64,000 nucleotides of DNA from NCBI GenBank assembly GCA_025059535.1, contig JANXCX010000024.1, forward strand, positions 23,425 through 87,424, given 5' to 3'. This DNA comes from Bacteroidia bacterium. Its GTDB lineage: Bacteria; Bacteroidota; Bacteroidia; SpSt-205. Below, one piece after another: positions 7,137 through 62,895 of this stretch (the first letter of the stretch is position 1; each line of letters starts with the position of its first letter). The notes beneath the pieces were generated by a model. That model did no database searches and had not been told where the DNA came from. It saw nothing but the letters and a program-made list of their open reading frames with translations. The translations under genes were made by a program, and so were the position numbers.

Positions 7137-7802
7137 TCAAGCTGGCTCACCCCATTTGCGCAAAGGCACAAATCGGAAGTAGCCTTTGGTCTCCCGATGG
7201 ATTTGGCCGTTGCGTTTGCTATACACCGTCATTTGCTGGGTGCCGTCTGGTCGGCCTATTGGTGCTACCAAGCGACCACCTTCGGCTAGTTGGTCAAATA
7301 GCCCTGGCGGCACGCTCTCGGCCGCCGCCGTAAGGAGAATGCGATCAAAGGGCGCATAGGTAGGCCAGCCCAATCGTCCATCCCCCCAACGCAAATAAAC
7401 TACATATCCTAGCCCCTCCAGGAGGGCTCGCGCCCGCTCATACAGTTCCCGCTCCAATTCCACGGAATATACCTCTGCCCCCAGCTCGCACAGAATAGCC
7501 GTCTGATAACCCGAGCCGGTACCAATTTCTAGGACGCGCTGCCGAGGCGCCACCTCTAAAAGACTGGTCTGATAGGCTACCGTGAAAGGCTGGCTAATCG
7601 TCTGTCCGCAAGCGATAGGTAAGGCTTTATCCTCATAGGCATGTTCTATAAAAGTAGGCTCTACGAAGAGATGGCGCGGCACGCGACCTATCGCCGCCAG
7701 CACAGCGGGGTCTTGTATGCCTTTCTGAATTAGACTTTCTACCAGCTGGCGACGCTGCCCCTGATAGCGCGGCGGATCCCACTCAAGCGGCAATCGCTTC
7801 AC
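7137..7802 (-). CDS. pcm: Protein-L-isoaspartate O-methyltransferase
   Basis: RQLVESLIQKGIQDPAVLAAIGRVPRHLFV, then a SAM-binding motif VLEIGTGSGYQTAIL and DRILLTAAA. The likely start is the GTG at 7802, which overlaps the TGA of the upstream gene in a GTGA arrangement. The ORF track extends it to 7928. Confidence 0.8.
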   Translation of the reverse strand: MKRLPLEWDPPRYQGQRRQLVESLIQKGIQDPAVLAAIGRVPRHLFVEPTFIEHAYEDKALPIACGQTISQPFTVAYQTSLLEVAPRQRVLEIGTGSGYQTAILCELGAEVYSVELERELYERARALLEGLGYVVYLRWGDGRLGWPTYAPFDRILLTAAAESVPPGLFDQLAEGGRLVAPIGRPDGTQQMTVYSKRNGQIHRETKGYFRFVPLRKWGEPA

Positions 7803-8542
7803 AAAGCCGAAGCCGAGAAAGAAGTAGAATGCACCGGAGAAACTGATGATCCTGGGGTCGTATAACCAAAGAAATATATCCCCACCTGTAAGGGATGGAC
7901 ATTGGCTGGTCCGCGCCCGCCACTCCACAGCGGCGATAAATTATACGAAGCAAAAAGCCCTATACTTCTATAGCCTATGCGGGCACCTAAGCCATACTGC
8001 AAAATATCCGTATGCACCACGTCGTTGCCGTATGAAATAAAGCGGGCTAGTTCCCCATTCTGCGCGTATTTGCGTTTGTGTTTGCTCCACAGTAAAAGCT
8101 CCCCAAATCCATATAGGGCAAAGTTAAAGGCCCCTTTTAGAAGACCCAACTCCACAGGCACCCGCAGGTAACCCAGCTGCAGTTTGCTTTTAGCCATTAC
8201 GGAAGAAGGCAGATTTTCTACTAAGTAGCCTAGTTTATTGTCTGGAGTACTGAAAAGTCGCACTATTTTAGCGAAGCGTACTTCACGGATGGTAAGGCCT
8301 AAACCCGCCCCCATATAAAAGGGGCCTAGGCGGAAAAAGGGGAGTGTAGCGAAGTTAACCTTGATGGAGCCTGCACCTCGTAGGGAGCCCTGTAAAGTTT
8401 CAGGAATACCTAAGAAGCGATTATACCCGATTTCAAAGTAAGTCTGCCAGCCCCAACGGGACTTTCGGACCATTTCTGGGGGCGTTTGTTGGGCCCATAA
8501 CATGGCGCCTGTGAGGCCTACCAGCGCTGGGCGAAGGCTCAT
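7799..8542 (-). CDS. Outer-membrane beta-barrel protein (porin-like, OmpA/OmpW-type barrel)
   Basis: Signal peptide MSLRPALVGLTGAMLWAQQ. Alternating hydrophobic/aromatic beta-strand pattern with Y/F/G-rich turns. Confidence 0.45.
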   Translation of the reverse strand: MSLRPALVGLTGAMLWAQQTPPEMVRKSRWGWQTYFEIGYNRFLGIPETLQGSLRGAGSIKVNFATLPFFRLGPFYMGAGLGLTIREVRFAKIVRLFSTPDNKLGYLVENLPSSVMAKSKLQLGYLRVPVELGLLKGAFNFALYGFGELLLWSKHKRKYAQNGELARFISYGNDVVHTDILQYGLGARIGYRSIGLFASYNLSPLWSGGRGPANVHPLQVGIYFFGYTTPGSSVSPVHSTSFSASAL

Positions 8543-32501: not shown

Positions 32502-32954
32502 TTACCGAGCGGAGGGCGGCAGCTCTCGCACCAGCTGCGCTCCCCAAGGACAATACACCCGTACGCTACGCAGCCATTCCGCCAGGTTAGCCTCCACATA
32601 GGAGGGGCGCGCATCACACACCTCCATGGCAATCTCAGCAAATATTACGCTATCGGGATGAAAGTGCCAGCTCCACCGGTGTTCGCCGCAGCGATTAAAC
32701 CCCCCATCACCCTCATATAGGGGCCCTAAGGGAATAGTCCGACCTTCCTGCTGGGCTAGGATTCGGCGGGCCTCAGCAATCCGCACCGAATCGCGCAGCC
32801 GCAGAATAAAGCACTCCTCGCCCACGCGCACCTCAAAATCCACCGGCTCAGGTTTCGGCGGCGGTCCATTCGGCCTTTCTTCAGCCTCTCGCCGACACCC
32901 CAGAACTAAAAAGGCTAAGAAAAATACCCCCCTACTCCCTAATCCAGTTATCAT
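32502..32954 (-). CDS. Hypothetical lipoprotein
   Basis: Lipobox FLVLGC from the internal Met; the ORF track extends to a GTG at 32990. No domain recognised. Confidence 0.35.
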   Translation of the reverse strand: MITGLGSRGVFFLAFLVLGCRREAEERPNGPPPKPEPVDFEVRVGEECFILRLRDSVRIAEARRILAQQEGRTIPLGPLYEGDGGFNRCGEHRWSWHFHPDSVIFAEIAMEVCDARPSYVEANLAEWLRSVRVYCPWGAQLVRELPPSAR

Positions 32955-33065
32955 AACGGTAAATATACGCGCAAAGGACCGTGAATGCACAGAAGGAAGC
33001 TCAAAAATAAGTTCTACTGCGCACGGTGCAGGGAGACTATCTAACGCCTCTCACAGCCGAGGAGA

Positions 33066-33277: not shown

Positions 33278-33751
33278 ATGAAGAACGAATCGCCCCGCAA
33301 GCTGGGGCGCCGCATAGAGCGTTTTCTGCGCAGTGCCCGGCTGAAGTATATGGTAGACCAAGACGGCGACTATCATGTGGCCCTTCGCCTAGATGAGGAT
33401 AACCTGCGGATGCATATCATCTTCATGTGTGAGGGCCTGCGCGGAGAGATTCTTTCCATTCTTATTCGCTTTGAGGGTAAAATCCCCCAACTTTCACCCG
33501 AAGAGGCTCTTCAAAAGGCGAATGAATGGAATCTCACGCGCCGCTGGCCGCGCATTTACTGGAAAGAGGGCTATTTCTACGGAGACTTTCACTTAGATAC
33601 CGAGCTGAATATTTCGTACAAGGCACTGGCGCAGAATATTCTTCATGTTATCGTAGCCAGTGCGCAGTTCCTCATGTACATAACGGGTCGGGAAATAGGC
33701 CTGATTGAGGAGATTAAGCGACATATGGTAGCGATTCTGCGGCTGAATTAG
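33278..33751 (+). CDS. YbjN-like (putative sensory-transduction regulator / T3SS-chaperone-like fold) protein
   Basis: 157 aa. The pattern ...FLRSARLKYMVDQDGDYHVALRLD...IIFMCEGL...ILIRFEGKIP...EWNLTRRWPRIYW... resembles the YbjN family. GC is about 50%, lower than the surroundings. Confidence 0.35.
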   Translation: MKNESPRKLGRRIERFLRSARLKYMVDQDGDYHVALRLDEDNLRMHIIFMCEGLRGEILSILIRFEGKIPQLSPEEALQKANEWNLTRRWPRIYWKEGYFYGDFHLDTELNISYKALAQNILHVIVASAQFLMYITGREIGLIEEIKRHMVAILRLN

Positions 33752-35226
33752 AATTCGGACACCCACTCCAGTCGTACGAGGCTGCGGCGCCAGTCCCAGG
33801 GCGTACCTTGGCGACGGCCCGTCGCAAGGGTAAGGCGCAGAATGCCTGCGGCAAGCTGGGTTTGCAGCGCAAGGCCAAGAGTATAGTTGGGCAGACGGAT
33901 GGAGGGAAGAAGGAAAAGTTGTCCGCCCTCGGCGAAAACACTAAAATAGCCAGCCTCCTCGGTATGGAGACGCAGCTCGGTATAGCCTTGAAGCGCCGCT
34001 TGGGCTGGAAAGGTATTTTCGGGAAAGCCTCGCAGACCTACCTCCCCCCCTAAGCGGGGCAATTCATTTTCGTAGGAAGAGGTGCTAGTGTAGCGATAGA
34101 GGACCCCTCCCAGGCGTAGCGTAAGAAGCCGCCCTAAAGGAAGGAAGGCTTCACCCTGCCCATGAAACTCTTGAAAGGAAGCAGTACGCAGCGGAAGGTC
34201 TAAAGGCGGGAAGGGGAGGTAGGTAAGGCGCCCCTGCGTCCCAACTAAAAATAGGAAATACCCCCGATGGGGGGAGAGGCGCTGATCTAGCCGCTCATAT
34301 TCCCAGCCGATTTTTGCCCCTATGCGTTGAAAGCCGCGCAGCGGGCGCAGCGAAGAGAACGCCGAGCCTATGGGACGAGAAGCGCCGTGCCGCAGACCAA
34401 GAATACTACGCAGGGAAGGCGTAAGGCGCAAGCGGGTTTCGGCCTCCACCTCACGCTGGAGAAAGGCTGTATCCTGCCGCCAGAGGAGAAAGCGCCCGCG
34501 CAGCTCAAGAAAACCTTTCCACACATAGGGAAGGCCCAAAAAGAGCTGGAGGCGCTGGGCGTTATTGGGTAGCTGGGCATAGCGGGCTTCCAAACGCTCT
34601 CCGAGGCGGAAAGGGCTGAGGAGACTTACCTCTAGGCTGCCTATAACCTGCGCACGCTGGCTTGAAGTGGGCACAAGGGCCAGGGCGCCATCCACGCGAT
34701 TGCCCTGCTTAGGCTGTAGGGCAACCTCTACCCATGCAAGGTTAGGAAAAAGCCAGAGCTGTGGGGTATCCGTAGGGGAAGCATAGGGATTCTGACGGAG
34801 CTTGCGCGGGAGGGCCTCCCAATTCGGCAAGCGTAGAGGTTGCCCAGGTTGTAAGCCAGTGATTTGGTAGAAGGCGCGCCGGGGCGCTGGCCAACGCCCC
34901 CGTATCAAAATCGTATCTAGCCGCACAAGTGGCCCTGGGGTTACTTCTAATACGCCTCCGCAGTGTCCTCCCGTGCATCCAAAGCGCCGCCAAACCACCG
35001 CCGCATATAAATACCCTTCCTCTAAAAACAGCCGCTGTAGGCCAAGCGGAATTGCCCTGAGATTATCGGGCGTTACCTCTTTATTCTTCCAGCGCTGGAG
35101 GTAGGCTGCGCTTCGCTGGGCCAACTTACCCTCAGCGCCTACGCAGCGAAGCTCCTGAAAGGTAAGCCTCTCCGTCTTAGGCAGGTCGGAGCTGGTCAGT
35201 TGAAGCCATACCCAGAGGAGGTACAT
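33748..35226 (-). CDS. Omp85-family outer-membrane beta-barrel protein with an N-terminal POTRA-like domain (TpsB/TamA-like size)
   Basis: 492 aa. POTRA-like LTFQELRCVGAEG...LQRLFLEEGYLYAAVV. C-terminal amphipathic barrel strands ending ...LVRLEWVSEF with an aromatic terminus. It lies 12 bp downstream of the EEP gene. Confidence 0.5.
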   Translation of the reverse strand: MYLLWVWLQLTSSDLPKTERLTFQELRCVGAEGKLAQRSAAYLQRWKNKEVTPDNLRAIPLGLQRLFLEEGYLYAAVVWRRFGCTGGHCGGVLEVTPGPLVRLDTILIRGRWPAPRRAFYQITGLQPGQPLRLPNWEALPRKLRQNPYASPTDTPQLWLFPNLAWVEVALQPKQGNRVDGALALVPTSSQRAQVIGSLEVSLLSPFRLGERLEARYAQLPNNAQRLQLFLGLPYVWKGFLELRGRFLLWRQDTAFLQREVEAETRLRLTPSLRSILGLRHGASRPIGSAFSSLRPLRGFQRIGAKIGWEYERLDQRLSPHRGYFLFLVGTQGRLTYLPFPPLDLPLRTASFQEFHGQGEAFLPLGRLLTLRLGGVLYRYTSTSSYENELPRLGGEVGLRGFPENTFPAQAALQGYTELRLHTEEAGYFSVFAEGGQLFLLPSIRLPNYTLGLALQTQLAAGILRLTLATGRRQGTPWDWRRSLVRLEWVSEF

Positions 35227-35237
35227 CGGTACGGGCC

Positions 35238-36338
35238 TTATCGGCAGAAGCCATATAGCTTACCCGTTACAGGAGCATGATCGGAGAGGGGGAAAGTCTC
35301 CATGCCACCTTTGGTACTATCCTGATGCACAAGGCCATCCGTCCAATACGCATTGGTAAAAAGGTAATCTAAGCGGCGATTCCACCAGCCCCGGCTATTC
35401 ACGGTGTGGGAGTAGTAGGCGGCCTCGTTAGCCTGATACTTCTCTAAGGGTATAACCTCCCGATAGGCCGCATAGAAGGGCCGCAGCCAATCCACCTCCC
35501 GCGTATAGTCATCAGCTACAAAGGTGGGATCTACTTCTTTGCATTTATTGTCGTCAAAGTCTTTGAGTTTTCGGGTGCCCGGTGGTACAGTGTTCAAGTC
35601 GCCCCCAGCCACCCATACCGCACCGCTTCGGGTAAGGCTGTCTAAAAAGCGTTTGAAAATTTGAAGCTGGAAATAGCGGGTACTATCGGGCTCTGGCACA
35701 TAGGCTTCCAGGTGGGTATTGATTACCCAGAAGTTTGGCTGGCAGGGCAGGGGTATCCGCGCCGCTAGGATATTGCGACGCAGATAGAAGAAGCGATACC
35801 ACCAAGGGTAAGCCGCTACTAAAGGCAAGGGTAGGCGAAAAGCTGTATCTATAGGCCAGCGGGAGAAAATCGCATTGCCTGAATTAATCGGCCCAAGCCC
35901 CCGACTGGGTAAGTAACGCACATGCCATTGACTCGCATAGGCCGCGTAGGGCAGCCCAGTACTATCAGCTAAATACTTGAACATGTCAATTCCCGCCGAG
36001 CGGCGCGAGCCAATATCTAGCTCCTGCACCAGAAGAATATCGGGCTGCACCTGACGGATTTTTCGCAGAAGGCCAGCCAAATTGTGGAGCACCTCCTCCT
36101 GCGTCATGAGAACCCTATCGCCATAGCAGTCAAAAAAGAAATCTATGCGCGCACCACCAAACTTGATGTTCCAGGTCATGACTACTAGGGTATCGCGGAA
36201 AGGCGCCGGCGAGGCGCCAGGGGCTGTATAGCGCTGGGCTGGAGTAGGACGTTTATACTGCACGACCCACAGATCCGTGCCCAAAATAAGCGATACGCCT
36301 ATAAGTAGAAGCCCCACCACGCCGGCTACGACTCGCAT
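35238..36338 (-). CDS. Endonuclease/exonuclease/phosphatase (EEP) family hydrolase with an N-terminal signal anchor
   Basis: Signal anchor MRVVAGVVGLLLIGVSLILG. EEP motifs VVMTWNIKFG, DILLVQELD and the C-terminal SDHAPV. Confidence 0.8.
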   Translation of the reverse strand: MRVVAGVVGLLLIGVSLILGTDLWVVQYKRPTPAQRYTAPGASPAPFRDTLVVMTWNIKFGGARIDFFFDCYGDRVLMTQEEVLHNLAGLLRKIRQVQPDILLVQELDIGSRRSAGIDMFKYLADSTGLPYAAYASQWHVRYLPSRGLGPINSGNAIFSRWPIDTAFRLPLPLVAAYPWWYRFFYLRRNILAARIPLPCQPNFWVINTHLEAYVPEPDSTRYFQLQIFKRFLDSLTRSGAVWVAGGDLNTVPPGTRKLKDFDDNKCKEVDPTFVADDYTREVDWLRPFYAAYREVIPLEKYQANEAAYYSHTVNSRGWWNRRLDYLFTNAYWTDGLVHQDSTKGGMETFPLSDHAPVTGKLYGFCR

Positions 36339-36566
36339 GGCTCAAACTTACGGGATATATAGCTAACCGCTTGATTCCTGGGGCTTTGTCGGGCAGAGAA
36401 TAAGCGCTAGTAAGCAGGAGCTCTGGCCAGATAGCGTCCGTTAGGCCTACTAAGGCATCGCCCTAAGGAATTGAATAGGCGCCCCAAGCCATTTGAGCCT
36501 AAGAGGGGGGTGGCGCGGGAAAGCTTTTAGCTGCTCTTACGCAAGCTGGCGGACCAAACTTTCCAT

Positions 36567-46278: not shown

Positions 46279-47825
46279 GGCGGGTGGCTTTATTGGGCGT
46301 GGGACGCTGGGGCGAAAAGCTCCTGCGCCTTTTGGAAGCCAAGGGGGCTTTGGCCAAAGTCTGGACCCGCACCCCCGCTAATTACCCTGGCTTAATGGCC
46401 TCCTATGCCCATGTCCCATGGACAGCTAATTTGGAAGAGGTATGGAATGATCCCAGCCTTACGGCGGTCTGTATAGCCACACCGGCTGCTACCCACCCTC
46501 AGCTTATCCGCCAAGCTTTAGAAGCAGGAAAAGATGTGTTTTGTGAAAAGCCGCTGGCCTTCTCCGCCAGTGAGCTAAAAGCGCTTATAGCCCTTGCGGA
46601 AAAGCGGGGCCTAATCCTCATGGGCGGACATGTGCTGCATTACCATCCCGCCGTGCTTCTCATCCAAAGCTGGATAAAGGCCGGAAAACTGGGGCGCCTT
46701 TTAGGCCTATGGTCAGAGCGGGCTAGTTTCGGTCGCTTTCCCCTCCAAGAAGATGCCCTGTGGGGGCTAGCCATCCATGATCTAGGCCTATTTTATTTTC
46801 TTCTGGAAAGCGAGCCCGTTAGCAGTGAGATTCGGGCGGAGCGCCACTGGGGCCAAGCCTGGGAGAGCGTGCGGATTGCGTTGCGGTTTAGTTGGGGCGC
46901 AGAAGGGCATATTTTCGCCAGCTGGATAGCGCCCGAACGGCGCCGCCGGCTTAGTGTGATAGGAAGCGAAGGCATGCTCACCTTTAGCGAGGAGGGCGAG
47001 AAGCCCACGCTCGTCTATTATCCCATTCGTACCGTATGGCAGAAGGGCTGGGTAGCTACACCTGCGTTAGAGGGTCAGGAAGTGCTACCCCTGCCAGCCG
47101 TAGAGCCGCTCGCAGCGGAGATAGAAGACTTTCTGCAGGCCTTAGACACGCGCCAGCCGCCCCGCACCGAGGCTAAAGCCCTCCTACCCGCCGTAGCTTT
47201 AGCCGAGCACTTGGCTCGCCAGCTGCAGCCCTCCCCCCTAAATTACTTCGTACACCCCACAGCCCTTATTGATGAGGAGGTAGAAATCGGAGAAGGCACA
47301 AAAATCTGGCACTTCAGCCACGTCCTGCGCGGCAGCCGAATCGGCAAAAACTGCGTCTTAGGCCAAAATGTGGTAGTCGGCCCCTATGTGCGCGTAGGCG
47401 ATAACTGCAAAATTCAGAATAACGTCTCCCTCTACTATGGGGTAGAGCTGGAGGATGGCGTGCTGTGCGGCCCTTCCTGCGTATTCACTAACGACAAGTA
47501 TCCGAGGGCTTTTATAGAACGACGAAATGAGTTTCTCCCCACGCGCGTGCGCCAAGGGGCTACTATCGGCGCGAACGCGACCATTATGTGCGGCGTTACT
47601 ATAGGGCGCTTTGCCATGGTAGGGGCAGGGTCCGTAGTAGTGCATGATGTACCAGATTTTGCGCTGGTATTAGGTAATCCTGCGCGCCTAGTGGGCTGGG
47701 TATGCCGCTGTGGGGAAACTCTCCAAGAATGCGAAGCCGACACCCTATATTACTGTAGCCGCTGCAACCTGCACTACCGCCGCACGCTCAAAGGCCTAGA
47801 AGAAGTTCCCCTTCAGAAGGGGTAG
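46266..47825 (+). CDS. Bifunctional fusion: Gfo/Idh/MocA NAD-dependent oxidoreductase plus left-handed beta-helix (hexapeptide-repeat) N-acetyltransferase (WbpB/WbpD-like)
   Basis: Residues 1-310 have the Rossmann fold VALLGVGRWGEK...CEKPLA.. of the Gfo/Idh/MocA family. Residues 320-519 carry repeated [LIV]G-x-x-x-x hexapeptides (IGEGTKIWHFSHVLRGSRIGKNCVLGQNVVVGPYVRVGDNCKIQNNV...). Confidence 0.75.
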   Translation: MGSVRRVALLGVGRWGEKLLRLLEAKGALAKVWTRTPANYPGLMASYAHVPWTANLEEVWNDPSLTAVCIATPAATHPQLIRQALEAGKDVFCEKPLAFSASELKALIALAEKRGLILMGGHVLHYHPAVLLIQSWIKAGKLGRLLGLWSERASFGRFPLQEDALWGLAIHDLGLFYFLLESEPVSSEIRAERHWGQAWESVRIALRFSWGAEGHIFASWIAPERRRRLSVIGSEGMLTFSEEGEKPTLVYYPIRTVWQKGWVATPALEGQEVLPLPAVEPLAAEIEDFLQALDTRQPPRTEAKALLPAVALAEHLARQLQPSPLNYFVHPTALIDEEVEIGEGTKIWHFSHVLRGSRIGKNCVLGQNVVVGPYVRVGDNCKIQNNVSLYYGVELEDGVLCGPSCVFTNDKYPRAFIERRNEFLPTRVRQGATIGANATIMCGVTIGRFAMVGAGSVVVHDVPDFALVLGNPARLVGWVCRCGETLQECEADTLYYCSRCNLHYRRTLKGLEEVPLQKG

Positions 47826-50242
47826 CCCACGGCAAATACATACTGGGCATGGGCCCCCCCAATCGGAAAAGCCTGACCCACCCAACCCATAGAGGGATTG
47901 TAGATTTGCTGCGCTAGGTCTAAGCGTATCACCAGCACGGAGAAGTCCCAGCGAAGTCCAATCCCTGCCCCTATACCTGGGTAAGGATTCTTTCGGAAAA
48001 TCCCCCGCGCATCCTCAAAAAGTGTAGAGACGATGAACCATACATTGCCTACATCTACAAATGGCGCAACCTGAAGGCCTTTGTAGAGGAATTGGCGCAA
48101 TTCGGCATTCGCTTCAAACAGTAGCGTACCGCCTGGGATGAGGAAGAGGTTTTGAGGGAAGGCATAGCGGCCAGGACCTAATGACCCAAACTGCCAGGCC
48201 CGCATGCTATTAGGTCCGCCTACAAAGAAGCGATTTTCAAAGGGCAAGTCCTGCGTGTAGTAAAGGGCCTGACCTATACCCAAGCGGCCGCGCAGATAAA
48301 GCTGCTGGGCTGGCGAAAGAAGCGCCTGCCGCCAGCGCCCCTCTAAGAGGAAACGCACAAAAACGCCATAGCGGAAACGATTAAGGAGCCGATTATCCCG
48401 ATAGGTGCTATCCAAGGAAGGCCAGCCCAGTACCAACACATGCTCCAAAAAGAAAGGCACTACCCCCCCCAATTCTACTAGCAAAGCCGAGTAATCCCCC
48501 TTGCCCTTTTCTTGAGAGACGAAGTAGTTGCGATGAGAGGCTACCTGCCAGGCCGTAATCTGGGTAAGTCGCGGCAAATAGTCCAAAAGAATAAGGCTGC
48601 GCACCAGAGGAGAAAGGAGTTCTATCTGAGCCTCAAAACCCCTTGAGAATCGGCTGTCTATGAAGGTCAGGCTAAAGGGCGTCCATACCTGCTCTTCTTG
48701 GCGTTTATCTTGGAGGAGGTAGCGGGTGGTATGGCTCCAAGAGAAAGTAGCATAGCGCCGCAAGAAATCTACCTGCTCAATATCCTGGTAAGCCAGAAGG
48801 AAGGTTGTATGGAACTGGCTAACCGTACCTGTGAGGGGGTGGGGCGCAGCCTGCCGGGGGCGAAAGGTGGCTTGCGGTAAGGTAAGAGCCACCTCACCAG
48901 CGAGGTTATACAAAGGGAGAGGCGGCTCATCGGCGCGTCGGCGAAAATAGCTCAGGGCCGCTTGAGCCCGCAGGCGTAAAGGCCAGCCCCGCCGAAAAAG
49001 CGAAAGATGGGTGAAACGTAAATTCGCACTTGCGCCGGGAAGAGGTAAGCTCCCCACAAGCGGTTGAGTAGATTGAAAGCCCTCTAGACCTACCATCACA
49101 TCCAGTGGAGGACGAAGAAGGATATCGTAATTTACATGGATACGATTCAGGGAATCCTCTTGAAAGACAGGATTGACCCATTGGACTACCTCCAGGCCTT
49201 GCATAGCGCGCTGAGAAGTCTGAATGGCACGCAGGTCATACCGCCCACTTTGGGGATAGTAAAGGCGATTTACAAATACGCGACTGTCAATTATGCGGTC
49301 GGCGCGCGGTTCAGTATAGAGAGGAATAGTCGCCTGGTGCCGCCAAAGGACAGGAGTACGCTCAGACGTACGTACACTAATACTGGGGATGCCCATAGCA
49401 TAGCGCGGATAGCCGCTGGGGAGTTGCAGGACAACCTTACAGGTAGGTTTGGCTTCGGCCTCAAACCAGCGCTCCCAGAAAAAACGGGGCTGGCGCCCTT
49501 GCTCCGGCGTATTTGTCGTATCCACCTCCCAAATAAGCTGGCTTAGAGGCAAGCCATAATACCCTTCACTAAGCAGCATAGTGTAGGTAGCTTCCCGTAG
49601 CGCATCAAGCTGCGCTAGCTGATAGGGAGCCCCTATGGGTAGTTTTTGACGCGCCCAGAAACTATCTACTAAGGCTACCATTTCGCTATCGGGGCCAATC
49701 ACATCTAGCGCACGTATGTACCAGCGGCGCCCAGGGCGGATACGGTAGGTTACCTGCACTTCCCGCTCGGTAAGGGGAAGGATGTGGGGCTGAATAACGG
49801 TTTCAAAATATCCTTCTTGCAGGTAAGCGTCTTCAAGGAGGCGCAGGTCGCGCTCTATGTTTCGGTTGGAGAGGAGGGCTGGGGGCTCGCCTATTTGGTC
49901 GCGCAGAGCCCGGCCAAGGGCATGAGTATAGTAGCGCAGCTTAGGGAAGCGGCGCAGATAGCGCCAAGGCACCCCTTGACTTTCCAAGAGCACGCGTCCG
50001 GCCCAGTGGAGCTGGAGTCGGACACGCAGCCCAAAAAAACGCATGTTGCTGTGGGTATAAAGAGGAGGCGTCTCTTCAAGTACGTGGCCACGCAAAATTG
50101 GCCCACGAAAAACGAGGCGCTCTCCGGGTGCAAGAAAGTAGGCAGGGGCGCATCCACTAGCGCCCAGCAGGCTAAGCAAACACCACCGGCTGGCCCGCTG
50201 GGCTACCACAGAAGTACCCGCGCCAAAAGCTGAGCTCGCCAT
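47813..50242 (-). CDS. Omp85-superfamily outer-membrane protein (BamA/TamA-like, POTRA plus beta-barrel)
   Basis: POTRA-like NIERDLRLLEDAYLQEGYFETVIQP...EVQVTYRIRPGRRWYI. Long C-terminal barrel ending ...QYVFAVGYPF. Possible lipobox LLGASGC near the N-terminus. 809 aa. Confidence 0.5.
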   Translation of the reverse strand: MASSAFGAGTSVVAQRASRWCLLSLLGASGCAPAYFLAPGERLVFRGPILRGHVLEETPPLYTHSNMRFFGLRVRLQLHWAGRVLLESQGVPWRYLRRFPKLRYYTHALGRALRDQIGEPPALLSNRNIERDLRLLEDAYLQEGYFETVIQPHILPLTEREVQVTYRIRPGRRWYIRALDVIGPDSEMVALVDSFWARQKLPIGAPYQLAQLDALREATYTMLLSEGYYGLPLSQLIWEVDTTNTPEQGRQPRFFWERWFEAEAKPTCKVVLQLPSGYPRYAMGIPSISVRTSERTPVLWRHQATIPLYTEPRADRIIDSRVFVNRLYYPQSGRYDLRAIQTSQRAMQGLEVVQWVNPVFQEDSLNRIHVNYDILLRPPLDVMVGLEGFQSTQPLVGSLPLPGASANLRFTHLSLFRRGWPLRLRAQAALSYFRRRADEPPLPLYNLAGEVALTLPQATFRPRQAAPHPLTGTVSQFHTTFLLAYQDIEQVDFLRRYATFSWSHTTRYLLQDKRQEEQVWTPFSLTFIDSRFSRGFEAQIELLSPLVRSLILLDYLPRLTQITAWQVASHRNYFVSQEKGKGDYSALLVELGGVVPFFLEHVLVLGWPSLDSTYRDNRLLNRFRYGVFVRFLLEGRWRQALLSPAQQLYLRGRLGIGQALYYTQDLPFENRFFVGGPNSMRAWQFGSLGPGRYAFPQNLFLIPGGTLLFEANAELRQFLYKGLQVAPFVDVGNVWFIVSTLFEDARGIFRKNPYPGIGAGIGLRWDFSVLVIRLDLAQQIYNPSMGWVGQAFPIGGAHAQYVFAVGYPF

Positions 50243-60561: not shown

Positions 60562-62895
60562 TTATTCCTCTTGTACGGGGAGCTCACGCGCGGCTTTACG
60601 CCGGGTAGGTGTAGCGGGGGAGGGGCTAGGAGGGGTAGCGCGTGAAGCTAAGCGGCCCCGAAAACGTGGCTGTTGTGTCGTGCCGCCGACATAAATGGCC
60701 AATCGCAAACGATCCCCTTCGGTTTCCTCTACAAGGTCTTTTACCCGCGCCATGCTTTTATCTAAGAGTACGCGCGGCACTTCTACAAGCAAGTCGTAGG
60801 CGATTTCACCACGCAGCGTATGGGCACCTGCTATGCGCATGCGCCAGCGATTAGCCTGAAGCCAAGTGGTATCCAGCCGCACCACCCCCTCCGCCAGAGA
60901 CAGGCGCGCCGTAACATCACCAACCACGATTCGGCGAAAGTCGGTCAGGGGCACTAAAGCGAAAAGTTCGTAGGTATAAGGGCTTTCTACGACCACAAAG
61001 TTTTCCAGCCTGAGGGCCAGCTGGGCGCGGGCGCTGCTCCAGCGCGGCGCACCTCGGTGTAAGGGGATGAAGGCCTCCAATTCACCCGAAACACGCCCTT
61101 GTAGATGGGGCAAAAGCGGAAAGAGGGTATCCAGCTCCGGTAGCTCGGCGTGAAGCGCTTCAAGCTGAAGGCCTTGAAAAAGGCCGGCAATTTCCCAGCT
61201 TTCTGGGTGATAGGCCCCTCGGCCTTGGAGACTACCCCGCCCCAGCCCTTGAAGGCTAAACCGGGGAAAGCGCCAGCCCAAAGAGTCCTTCTCCGCTACA
61301 ATCTCCGCTGGACCATAAAAGTTTTGGCGCCAACGCAAGGTATCCACGGTAAGGTGGAGACGCCCCTGTAAAGGAGGCAAAGGTGCAGGGCTCTCTGAAG
61401 TCGGCGCCGGCGCTAAAAAGGCCTCCAACGGCAAAAAAGGGCAGTGAATCCGCCCCTCTACTTCTACCGGCCCTCGGTAAGTAGAGTCTTGAAAGGCTAG
61501 GTAAGGGCACAGGGACAGATGGGCTACATTTAGGGTAAGGTCGGCATAGCGTATCGTCGCCTCCCGCACGAAAAGGCACTCAGGCGATAGGCTGAAGTAG
61601 CCTTTGGCTACATAGAGCCGAGGAAGATAAGCGTCGGTAAGGATACCCTGACCCTGAACTTGCCACCTACCCTCAGTATAGGTACAGTGGAGCGTGGCCT
61701 GAAGCCGCCCTGCTATACTGTCCGCATAGGGTACCGACCAGACACGCAGGGCTTCTAGGCGCACACTTCCTTGGAGGGTAGCTTGGCCTTGGGTTTTGGC
61801 AAAGGTATAGACCCCCTGAGCCCTCAGCGTATCCCCGATCCCACCAATGAGCCAAAGGCTATCTATCTCCAACCTACTGAAGGCTGGATAGTCAAAGTCC
61901 CACTTTATTCCCCCGCTTACATAAAGCTGCTCAATGTTATAGCCCCTTGTAGAGAAGCTTTTTGTAAGTAAGGCATTGCCTTTGAGCTTAAGGCGGGGCA
62001 GTCTGCCGCGTCCGGCCAAACCCACAATCTCGCCCGCTACAGTTAGCTTGAGCGGCATATCTTGAAGTTCAGGTGGCTGCTGGGGCCACCAGGTGCGCAT
62101 TTCGTCCCAGTCCAGCGCTACCTCTCGTAAGCGCAGCGAAACGCGCGGTGGATCGGCTTCTATCTGAATGCCGCCTTCTAAGTCGGCTTTTAGGCCCCCT
62201 ACTCGGCCTTCAAGCCTTTGGGTGAGTAGCCATCCCCCCTCATATACTAAGGGTCCGCGTAGGGTGAAGGGCTTTTGAGTTAGCCAAAGAGTACCTCTGT
62301 AGGAAAAGCTTTGGACTTCACCTACCACCTGCCCTATAACTTCCCACTGGCCAGCCCGATAGGCCCAGTGAGCTTCCATCGCCTTTACCCGGAGTTGCGC
62401 TTGGACGCGCAGGGCTTTGTCCTCATAAATAAGCCGCCCCCCCCTTACCTCAAGCCGCTCCAGCACCCACGAGGTCTCAGCCGAATCCTTAGTGGAATTA
62501 AACAGCCTACTCCAGGGGGTACGGCCATACCTATCGTACCGAATCCATAGGGTAGGCGCTTCCAAACGAAGGGCCCAAATGCGATATTTTTCTTCAATCA
62601 GGGCTTCCCAAAAGTTTAGGTAGAGAAAGGCGCGCGCCGCAACAAAAAGGCTCTCGCCTCGGGCGGTGCATAGAGAAAGGTCAATGACCTCTAAGGCCAA
62701 ATAGGGCAAGGTACGCAGCCCACTAAGGCGAATCTCCTGAAAGGTTAGCTCTGCGGAAAACTGGCGCCGGAGCTCAGCTTTAGCCCATTCAAGGAGCCGC
62801 GCGCGATTGAAGTAAATAAACCCTACCAATATGGCTATGCCTCCTAAAATTCCTAAAGCCAATCCGCTTAGAATTTGGAGAAACTTTTTGATCAT
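60562..62895 (-). CDS. AsmA-family protein (TamB-like outer-membrane biogenesis / lipid transport family)
   Basis: N-terminal TM anchor MIKKFLQILSGLALGILGGIAILVGFIYF, then about 750 aa of repetitive beta-rich sequence typical of AsmA-like proteins. Confidence 0.55.
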   Translation of the reverse strand: MIKKFLQILSGLALGILGGIAILVGFIYFNRARLLEWAKAELRRQFSAELTFQEIRLSGLRTLPYLALEVIDLSLCTARGESLFVAARAFLYLNFWEALIEEKYRIWALRLEAPTLWIRYDRYGRTPWSRLFNSTKDSAETSWVLERLEVRGGRLIYEDKALRVQAQLRVKAMEAHWAYRAGQWEVIGQVVGEVQSFSYRGTLWLTQKPFTLRGPLVYEGGWLLTQRLEGRVGGLKADLEGGIQIEADPPRVSLRLREVALDWDEMRTWWPQQPPELQDMPLKLTVAGEIVGLAGRGRLPRLKLKGNALLTKSFSTRGYNIEQLYVSGGIKWDFDYPAFSRLEIDSLWLIGGIGDTLRAQGVYTFAKTQGQATLQGSVRLEALRVWSVPYADSIAGRLQATLHCTYTEGRWQVQGQGILTDAYLPRLYVAKGYFSLSPECLFVREATIRYADLTLNVAHLSLCPYLAFQDSTYRGPVEVEGRIHCPFLPLEAFLAPAPTSESPAPLPPLQGRLHLTVDTLRWRQNFYGPAEIVAEKDSLGWRFPRFSLQGLGRGSLQGRGAYHPESWEIAGLFQGLQLEALHAELPELDTLFPLLPHLQGRVSGELEAFIPLHRGAPRWSSARAQLALRLENFVVVESPYTYELFALVPLTDFRRIVVGDVTARLSLAEGVVRLDTTWLQANRWRMRIAGAHTLRGEIAYDLLVEVPRVLLDKSMARVKDLVEETEGDRLRLAIYVGGTTQQPRFRGRLASRATPPSPSPATPTRRKAARELPVQEE

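Follow-up and report, generated by a model that had tools for sequence, protein, structure and literature searches.

An EEP-fold phosphoesterase gene beside a divergent Omp85-family gene in a Bacteroidia bacterium: probably a lineage-specific juxtaposition rather than an exporter and its cargo

Omp85-family outer-membrane barrels have been found associated with secreted substrates or with enzymes in several ways. In type Vb (TpsB/TpsA) systems, such as FhaC/FHA and CdiB/CdiA, a barrel of 16 strands preceded by two POTRA units serves as the dedicated translocase of a separately encoded partner with a two-partner secretion (TPS) domain, while enzyme-fused barrels are known from PlpD (type Vd), where the enzyme is a lipase, and from the "Metallo" (Omp85-metalloprotease) subfamily of Heinz and Lithgow, defined by an N-terminal PF00149 domain (PMC4104836). 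A "BamA-like" class with one to three POTRA units, always additional to BamA, was described in the same work (Heinz & Lithgow 2014, PMC4104836), and DUF5982 "noNterm" Omp85 proteins have been described in Leptospira (LIC12252/12254/12258) and in Cytophagales, with no function assigned (PMC11358297). Here, we analyze a locus within a stretch of 64,000 nucleotides of contig JANXCX010000024.1 from a Bacteroidia bacterium (hereafter, the window), in which a gene for a phosphoesterase of the endonuclease/exonuclease/phosphatase (EEP) fold (35238-36338, minus strand, 366 residues) is followed on the same strand by a gene for a 492-residue, divergent Omp85-family protein (33748-35226). The original prediction for this locus was that the EEP enzyme would be the cargo of an Omp85 exporter. 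Our analysis leads us to favor, with moderate confidence, a juxtaposition specific to this lineage, in which two envelope genes that act independently of each other are probably co-transcribed, rather than a dedicated exporter-cargo system.

Evidence for this comes from the gene order in relatives. On the Omp85 side, we compared 22 loci carrying closer relatives of the 492-residue protein (four from genomes or assemblies, L007-L010, and 18 from metagenomes, L090-L107, including a few near-duplicates), and in none of them was a gene for an EEP enzyme, for DUF5982 or for p260, a ~260-residue protein discussed below, found within 5-6 kb. More distant family members (L111 and L113) stand alone amid housekeeping genes. 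On the EEP side, 79 loci of the family from species-representative genomes were compared, and the window arrangement recurs only in L022 (isolate DT_Bin_56, the sister metagenome-assembled genome, or MAG), the other 78 being devoid of this Omp85 gene. The L022 EEP, the nearest on record, is 97% identical to that of the window, and the accompanying Omp85-like protein is 89% identical. Among the next relatives, EEP is far better conserved (~80% identity) than the Omp85-like protein (~50%), and in the SKW77 assembly the EEP gene is found on contig 10 (L016) and a 535-residue Omp85-like relative on contig 4 (L007). Seen from both sides, the pairing is thus limited to the window and L022. Between these two genomes, the synonymous divergence (dS) is ~0.4-0.5, and the ratio of nonsynonymous to synonymous rates (dN/dS) is 0.03 in the EEP gene and 0.125 in the Omp85-like one, values similar to those of the neighbor genes. 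Both genes are under purifying selection and, given this divergence, the pair has remained intact and functional, but within a single lineage of little depth. It is because of this confinement that juxtaposition is favored and a dedicated exporter-cargo pair considered unlikely.

The same 22 loci have a common neighbor of their own. In 17 of them (L007:7628-9157, L009:7640-9181, L010:7687-9201 and 14 of L090-L107), a gene for a ~510-residue helical protein, absent from the window, follows the Omp85-like relative, and in L007, L009 and L010 a tRNA U5-methyltransferase gene comes after it. This protein, which has no Pfam match, was rejected as a functional partner, as it is all-helical, has no signal peptide, is probably cytoplasmic and is not found in the window; we use it as a synteny marker only.

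Although the 492-residue protein misses the Pfam threshold, its Omp85 nature is firm, because it is supported both by a profile search of its family and by an AlphaFold2 model. The match to Pfam Omp85 (PF01103) reaches 18.7 bits, under the cutoff of 24, the score with the NCBIfam Omp85_fam model is 19.8 bits (cutoff, 200), and no match to Pfam POTRA, POTRA_2 (PF08479) or ShlB (PF03865) was obtained at E<=0.01. With the family profile, whose 22 rows include two annotated POTRA plus Omp85 proteins, 2342 cluster representatives were obtained at E<=1e-30, typically of 570-600 residues. When ten of these matches were sampled, nine passed Pfam Omp85, POTRA matches were also present in six, and one had no Pfam match. 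In the AlphaFold2 model (pLDDT 83), two beta-alpha-alpha-beta-beta units precede the barrel strands. The first POTRA-like unit spans residues 22-96 (34939-35163, minus strand; strands 22-29, 76-85 and 88-96, helices 34-44 and 53-69) and the second, residues 102-160 (34747-34923; strands 102-110, 149-151 and 156-160, helices 116-123 and 133-144), whereas the Omp85-type beta-barrel, of ~16 strands, extends over residues 163-491 (33754-34740) and contains the loop-6 (L6) motif LRGF (34024-34035), all on the same strand. The C-terminal sequence is EWVSEF, ending in the terminal phenylalanine. The protein therefore presents the 16 strands, the (V/L)RG(F/Y) motif in L6 and the preceding POTRA units that characterize an Omp85 barrel. 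Consequently, the originally predicted stand-alone Omp85 protein with POTRA units is upheld by the family profile and the model, while the direct comparison with the Pfam models gave a sub-threshold result for Omp85 and none for POTRA or ShlB.

The closer relatives of this protein, which we took as orthologues, are 42-54% identical and have ~535-548 residues, some of them passing the PF01103 threshold, while the more distant ones are POTRA plus Omp85 proteins of ~580 residues. The 492-residue protein thus belongs, as a divergent representative, to a large family of Bacteroidota paralogues that are stand-alone POTRA plus Omp85 proteins of ~570-600 residues. When aligned with their relatives, the protein of the window and that of the sister genome are without ~33 residues just past the N-terminal hydrophobic segment, and without a short loop; we read the missing N-terminal residues as the remnant of a first POTRA, deleted in the window lineage. 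In the classification of Heinz and Lithgow, the protein agrees with the "BamA-like" class in being stand-alone, with few POTRA units, a 16-strand barrel, an L6 (L/V)RG(F/Y) motif and other Omp85 paralogues in the genome, but it is a very divergent representative, below the Pfam Omp85 threshold and deprived of the first-POTRA remnant. It is not BamA, for which five POTRA units, ~800 or more residues and a match to OM_YaeT would be expected; instead, there are 492 residues, two POTRA-like units and no match to TIGR03303. Neither does it match PF19412 (DUF5982), the N-terminal domain of the noNterm proteins.

As originally predicted, the upstream gene encodes an EEP-fold enzyme with a hydrophobic N-terminal segment that may be a signal anchor; this segment could alternatively be a long signal peptide. 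The protein matches Pfam Exo_endo_phos (PF03372) with 55.4 bits, above the curated threshold of 24.5, in an envelope covering residues 54-354 (35277-36179, minus strand), and its AlphaFold2 model (pLDDT 93) has a helix at residues 2-20 followed by the EEP fold; residues 1-53 correspond to this hydrophobic helix (36279-36335, minus strand) and a short linker. In an alignment of 56 homologues, residues N57, E106, D247, N249, D353 and H354 are unvaried, and we take them to be the catalytic residues on the basis of the standard EEP motifs; the enzyme is probably metal-dependent. Also unvaried are a family-specific insert, KFGGxRIDFFFDC, and two cysteines, C71 and C266, a pair that suggests a periplasmic disulfide. 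In addition, T21 (ILGT-D in the window protein) aligns with the lipobox cysteine (LxGC-D) of Myxococcota homologues; the catalytic domain would therefore be extracytoplasmic in every lineage, membrane-tethered or possibly cleaved.

The EEP family is strongly conserved (~50% identity across phyla) and uncharacterized, and its substrate cannot be read from similarity, since the structural and profile comparisons are unspecific. For instance, the top Foldseek match of the model in the PDB is 4ruw, an uncharacterized actinobacterial EEP (6e-16), followed by TDP2, CNOT6L, nocturnin, neutral sphingomyelinase and ExoIII, all at ~1e-11, with the human neutral sphingomyelinase 8j2f at rank 13 (1.3e-11). 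A single-sequence search of the PDB gave no matches, EEP structures being reached by profile only, and the profile match to the Bacillus sphingomyelinase 2ddr (E=0.005) is weaker than those to 4ruw or ExoIII. In fact, the window enzyme has in common with the EEP superfamily (ExoIII/APE1, TDP2, CCR4/nocturnin, and neutral and bacterial sphingomyelinases) the fold and the catalytic N, E, D-x-N and D-H, with no subfamily closer than the others by Foldseek, and it differs from all of them in the KFGGxRIDFFFDC insert, the conserved cysteine pair and the membrane tether of its own family.

Regarding the layout of the locus, the TAA stop codon of the EEP gene is separated from the ATG of the Omp85-like gene by the spacer ggcccgtaccg (35227-35237, minus strand), that is, by 11 nt and not the 12 bp initially reported. 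Both open reading frames (ORFs) have been annotated as genes in a "Bacteroidia bacterium" MAG, with a protein 100% identical to the 492-residue one, and are not chance ORFs; an exact-sequence look-up of the window Omp85-like protein returned no record. The G+C content is even throughout the region. In the 228-bp intergenic region upstream of the EEP gene, the sequence TAAGTTTG (36343-36350, minus strand), located 4 nt ahead of the EEP ATG, fits TAnnTTTG, which we take to be the Bacteroidota -7 promoter consensus and, thus, a putative promoter. No terminator-like site was found between the two ORFs in a scan for sigma-70 promoters and terminators, a type of scan that is uninformative for a Bacteroidota genome, and the same-strand terminator-like matches that it gave were all within coding regions. 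Because of the 11-nt spacer, the lack of a terminator-like site between the ORFs and the TAnnTTTG-type motif before the EEP gene, both genes are probably co-transcribed as one transcript. As a separate observation, with a promoter motif so near the EEP ATG, the transcript would have no leader or only a very short one. At the other end of the pair, a YbjN-like gene (33278-33751, plus strand) runs toward the Omp85-like gene, with an overlap of 4 nt at the 3' end of the latter, and past it come a BP74_N-domain gene (32502-32990, minus strand) and a TonB-dependent receptor gene; this whole block is syntenic with L022.

Across the EEP family, the dominant conserved neighbor is p260 and not an Omp85 protein. 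The p260 gene is directly downstream of EEP in 45 of the 79 loci (within L026-L089; e.g., L050:7038-7835, L071:1552-2328 and L059:3774-4589), with a 4-bp ATGA overlap in 24, and these loci belong to Myxococcota, Bradymonadales, Saprospiraceae and other Bacteroidota, Rhodothermales, Fibrobacterota and Raymondbacteria. p260 is the normal operon partner of the EEP family, and the two are translationally coupled in Myxococcota, Bacteroidota, Fibrobacterota and other groups. The p260 proteins have a signal peptide, a conserved RxGxGGxLP loop and a C-terminal LPxxDxxxx[F/W] motif, with F, W or Y as the last residue in 30 of the 45, features from which a small outer-membrane beta-barrel is predicted. 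Searches against Pfam, NCBIfam and PDB sequences gave no match even at E<=10, homology of p260 to the Omp85 barrel was rejected (hhalign probability 2%), and no description of the EEP-p260 module was found in a full-text literature search. p260 is not present at the window locus, and neither a p260 gene nor a DUF5982-Omp85 gene is hidden elsewhere in the window, as judged by a search for p260 and by tblastn and a hidden Markov model (HMM) search for DUF5982. A weak tblastn match at 8264-8536 corresponds to an unrelated ORF of 247 residues (7799-8542, minus strand), which does not match the p260 HMM; this ORF, for which neither Pfam nor NCBIfam gave a match, starts with a signal-peptide-like sequence and may encode a small outer-membrane protein.

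In the thermophilic Bacteroidia clade to which the window belongs, p260 is never adjacent to EEP, and the neighbors of the enzyme are diverse. In five sister species, grouped in a single branch of the EEP tree, a DUF5982 noNterm Omp85 gene is placed 15 bp upstream of the orthologous EEP gene (L011:4601-5965, L012:2609-3976, L013:4537-5967, L014:4537-5967 and L016:4531-5895; in L011, the two overlap by longest-ORF call), while the gene downstream of EEP varies. The protein encoded by this gene matches NCBIfam Omp85_fam at 221 bits, is not the paralogue found in the window and has no POTRA units; in DT_Bin_56, the sister genome of the window, it is encoded on another contig (L109), beside an M28 peptidase gene, and in L108 it has no EEP neighbor. 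In other members of the clade, no barrel gene adjoins EEP, and its neighbors are, depending on the locus, a thioredoxin-like gene, genes of the CCG/Fer4 type or the gene for a polytopic membrane protein. The polytopic protein, of 450-583 residues, was observed in three thermophilic Bacteroidia (L019:6993-8744, L020:3607-4959 and L021:992-2596); its sole family signal, a very weak NCBIfam match to an arabinofuranosyltransferase (GT-C-like), hints at envelope glycolipid or glycan chemistry.

With these data, the proposal that the Omp85 protein is a dedicated translocase secreting EEP, in the manner of type Vb or type Vd systems, has to be considered improbable. It has some attractive points, as the architecture of two POTRA units and a 16-strand barrel is that of a TpsB-sized protein, the structural matches include FhaC and CdiB, and the gene adjoins on the same strand that of a putative extracytoplasmic enzyme. 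Moreover, hydrolases fused to Omp85 barrels are known, as mentioned above; we take PF00149 to be the calcineurin-like metallophosphoesterase domain, and the "Metallo" subfamily would then be a phosphoesterase-Omp85 fusion and not a protease fusion, thus providing a precedent for an association of this kind. By contrast, the domain tests, the synteny test and the topology of the enzyme all go against an exporter and its cargo. BamA and TamA match the model at least as well as FhaC does, and the ShlB and POTRA_2 signatures are missing. EEP has no TPS domain (only PF03372 was matched) and is not fused to the barrel, there being a stop codon and 11 nt between the two, so that neither the TpsA/TpsB nor the PlpD pattern is followed and membership in either system was rejected by domain content; the fold also differs from those of the PlpD and "Metallo" enzymes. 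The 18-residue hydrophobic helix of EEP is typical of an anchor, its Myxococcota homologues have a lipobox, and the gene order is not conserved in any of the 22 loci with closer Omp85 relatives. A literature search found no paper linking an Omp85 protein with an EEP enzyme, and a Riemerella metallophosphoesterase that was followed as a lead proved to be a type IX secretion system effector with no Omp85 partner. Less credible still is the alternative of TamB being encoded elsewhere and of the 492-residue protein being simply the TamA/TamL orthologue, with a housekeeping role. Its length is near that of TamA, the wider family has the TamA layout of POTRA repeats and an Omp85 barrel (with three POTRA stretches in two of the ten sampled matches), and TamA is among the top structural matches. 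However, it matches no NCBIfam TamA/TamL model, and no TamB (DUF490) gene was seen beside its relatives in the six loci with Pfam-annotated gene lists. Furthermore, the window contains a separate ORF (47813-50242, minus strand) for an 809-residue Omp85 protein with a lipobox (LLGASGC) and Pfam POTRA and Omp85 matches, which can be aligned over its full length with NCBIfam lipo_TamL (252 bits; cutoff, 400) and is probably the TamL/TamA-type paralogue of this genome. A dihydroorotase gene is located directly upstream of this ORF. Elsewhere in the window, a 777-residue ORF (60562-62895, minus strand) has a sub-threshold match to DUF748 (34 bits, cutoff 50), presumably a member of an AsmA-like clan, and is possibly an AsmA/TamB-like envelope protein. 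A housekeeping TamA with no conserved EEP neighbor was the outcome that the original prediction regarded as contrary to it; the lack of synteny is what we observe, while the TamA identity is not.

A different alternative, which we regard as possible but doubtful, is that EEP does work with a barrel and that the barrel partner has been swapped. According to this explanation, EEP would need a barrel for its tethering or display, or for the delivery or removal of its substrate; in most lineages, this barrel would be p260, and the thermophilic clade, having lost the p260 linkage, would have recruited Omp85-family barrels, the DUF5982 noNterm type in one branch and the two-POTRA type in that of the window. 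The EEP family would then be the enzymatic half of an undescribed envelope module, made up of a periplasm-facing phosphoesterase and an interchangeable outer-membrane barrel, with the window pair as a working unit, a view that we hold only tentatively; in such a module, the barrel could display or tether EEP at the outer membrane, or feed it with an outer-membrane lipid or an imported phosphoester. The recurrence and frequent overlap of the EEP and p260 genes in several phyla, the signal peptide and C-terminal features of p260, the absence of adjacent p260 from the entire thermophilic clade and the conservation of the window pair under purifying selection are all consistent with this explanation. 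Several observations also count directly against juxtaposition: the same-strand spacing of 11 bp has survived a dS of ~0.4-0.5 between the window and L022, the N-terminal deletion of ~33 residues in the Omp85-like protein goes together with the new adjacency, and a second Omp85 type adjoins EEP in the five sister species. With ~13 distinct contexts without p260, and Omp85 genes representing ~0.2% of all genes, we roughly estimate that ~0.05 Omp85 neighbors would be expected, as opposed to two independent cases (p ~1e-3, or p ~0.05 once the case that triggered the finding is set aside). Against the swap, the two Omp85 paralogues are found together in single genomes irrespective of which one adjoins EEP (L007 and L016 in SKW77; L022 and L109 in DT_Bin_56), the EEP of the other members of the clade is found beside genes that do not encode barrels, and p260 has no homology to Omp85, its own assignment as a barrel coming from sequence features only. 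A looser link between the EEP family and outer-membrane barrels is nevertheless plausible, because of the p260 linkage in more than half of the EEP loci and of the second, different Omp85 beside EEP in the sister clade.

Under the juxtaposition that we favor, a lineage-specific rearrangement would have set two functional cell-envelope genes side by side, and both would probably be transcribed from a common promoter ahead of the EEP gene. The enzyme would be held at the membrane by its N-terminal helix, its Myxococcota homologues being presumably lipoproteins instead, and the 492-residue protein would most likely act as an accessory insertase or translocase for outer-membrane clients, independently of EEP.

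If the two genes are merely juxtaposed, the contribution of the window is limited to two divergent representatives of superfamilies that were already known. The wider interest of the locus would then reside in the undescribed EEP-p260 module and in its recurring barrel neighbors. If, on the other hand, the EEP-p260 module is real and Omp85 proteins replace its barrel, this would give a role to the orphan noNterm and BamA-like Omp85 paralogues and would define a new periplasm-to-outer-membrane enzyme system.

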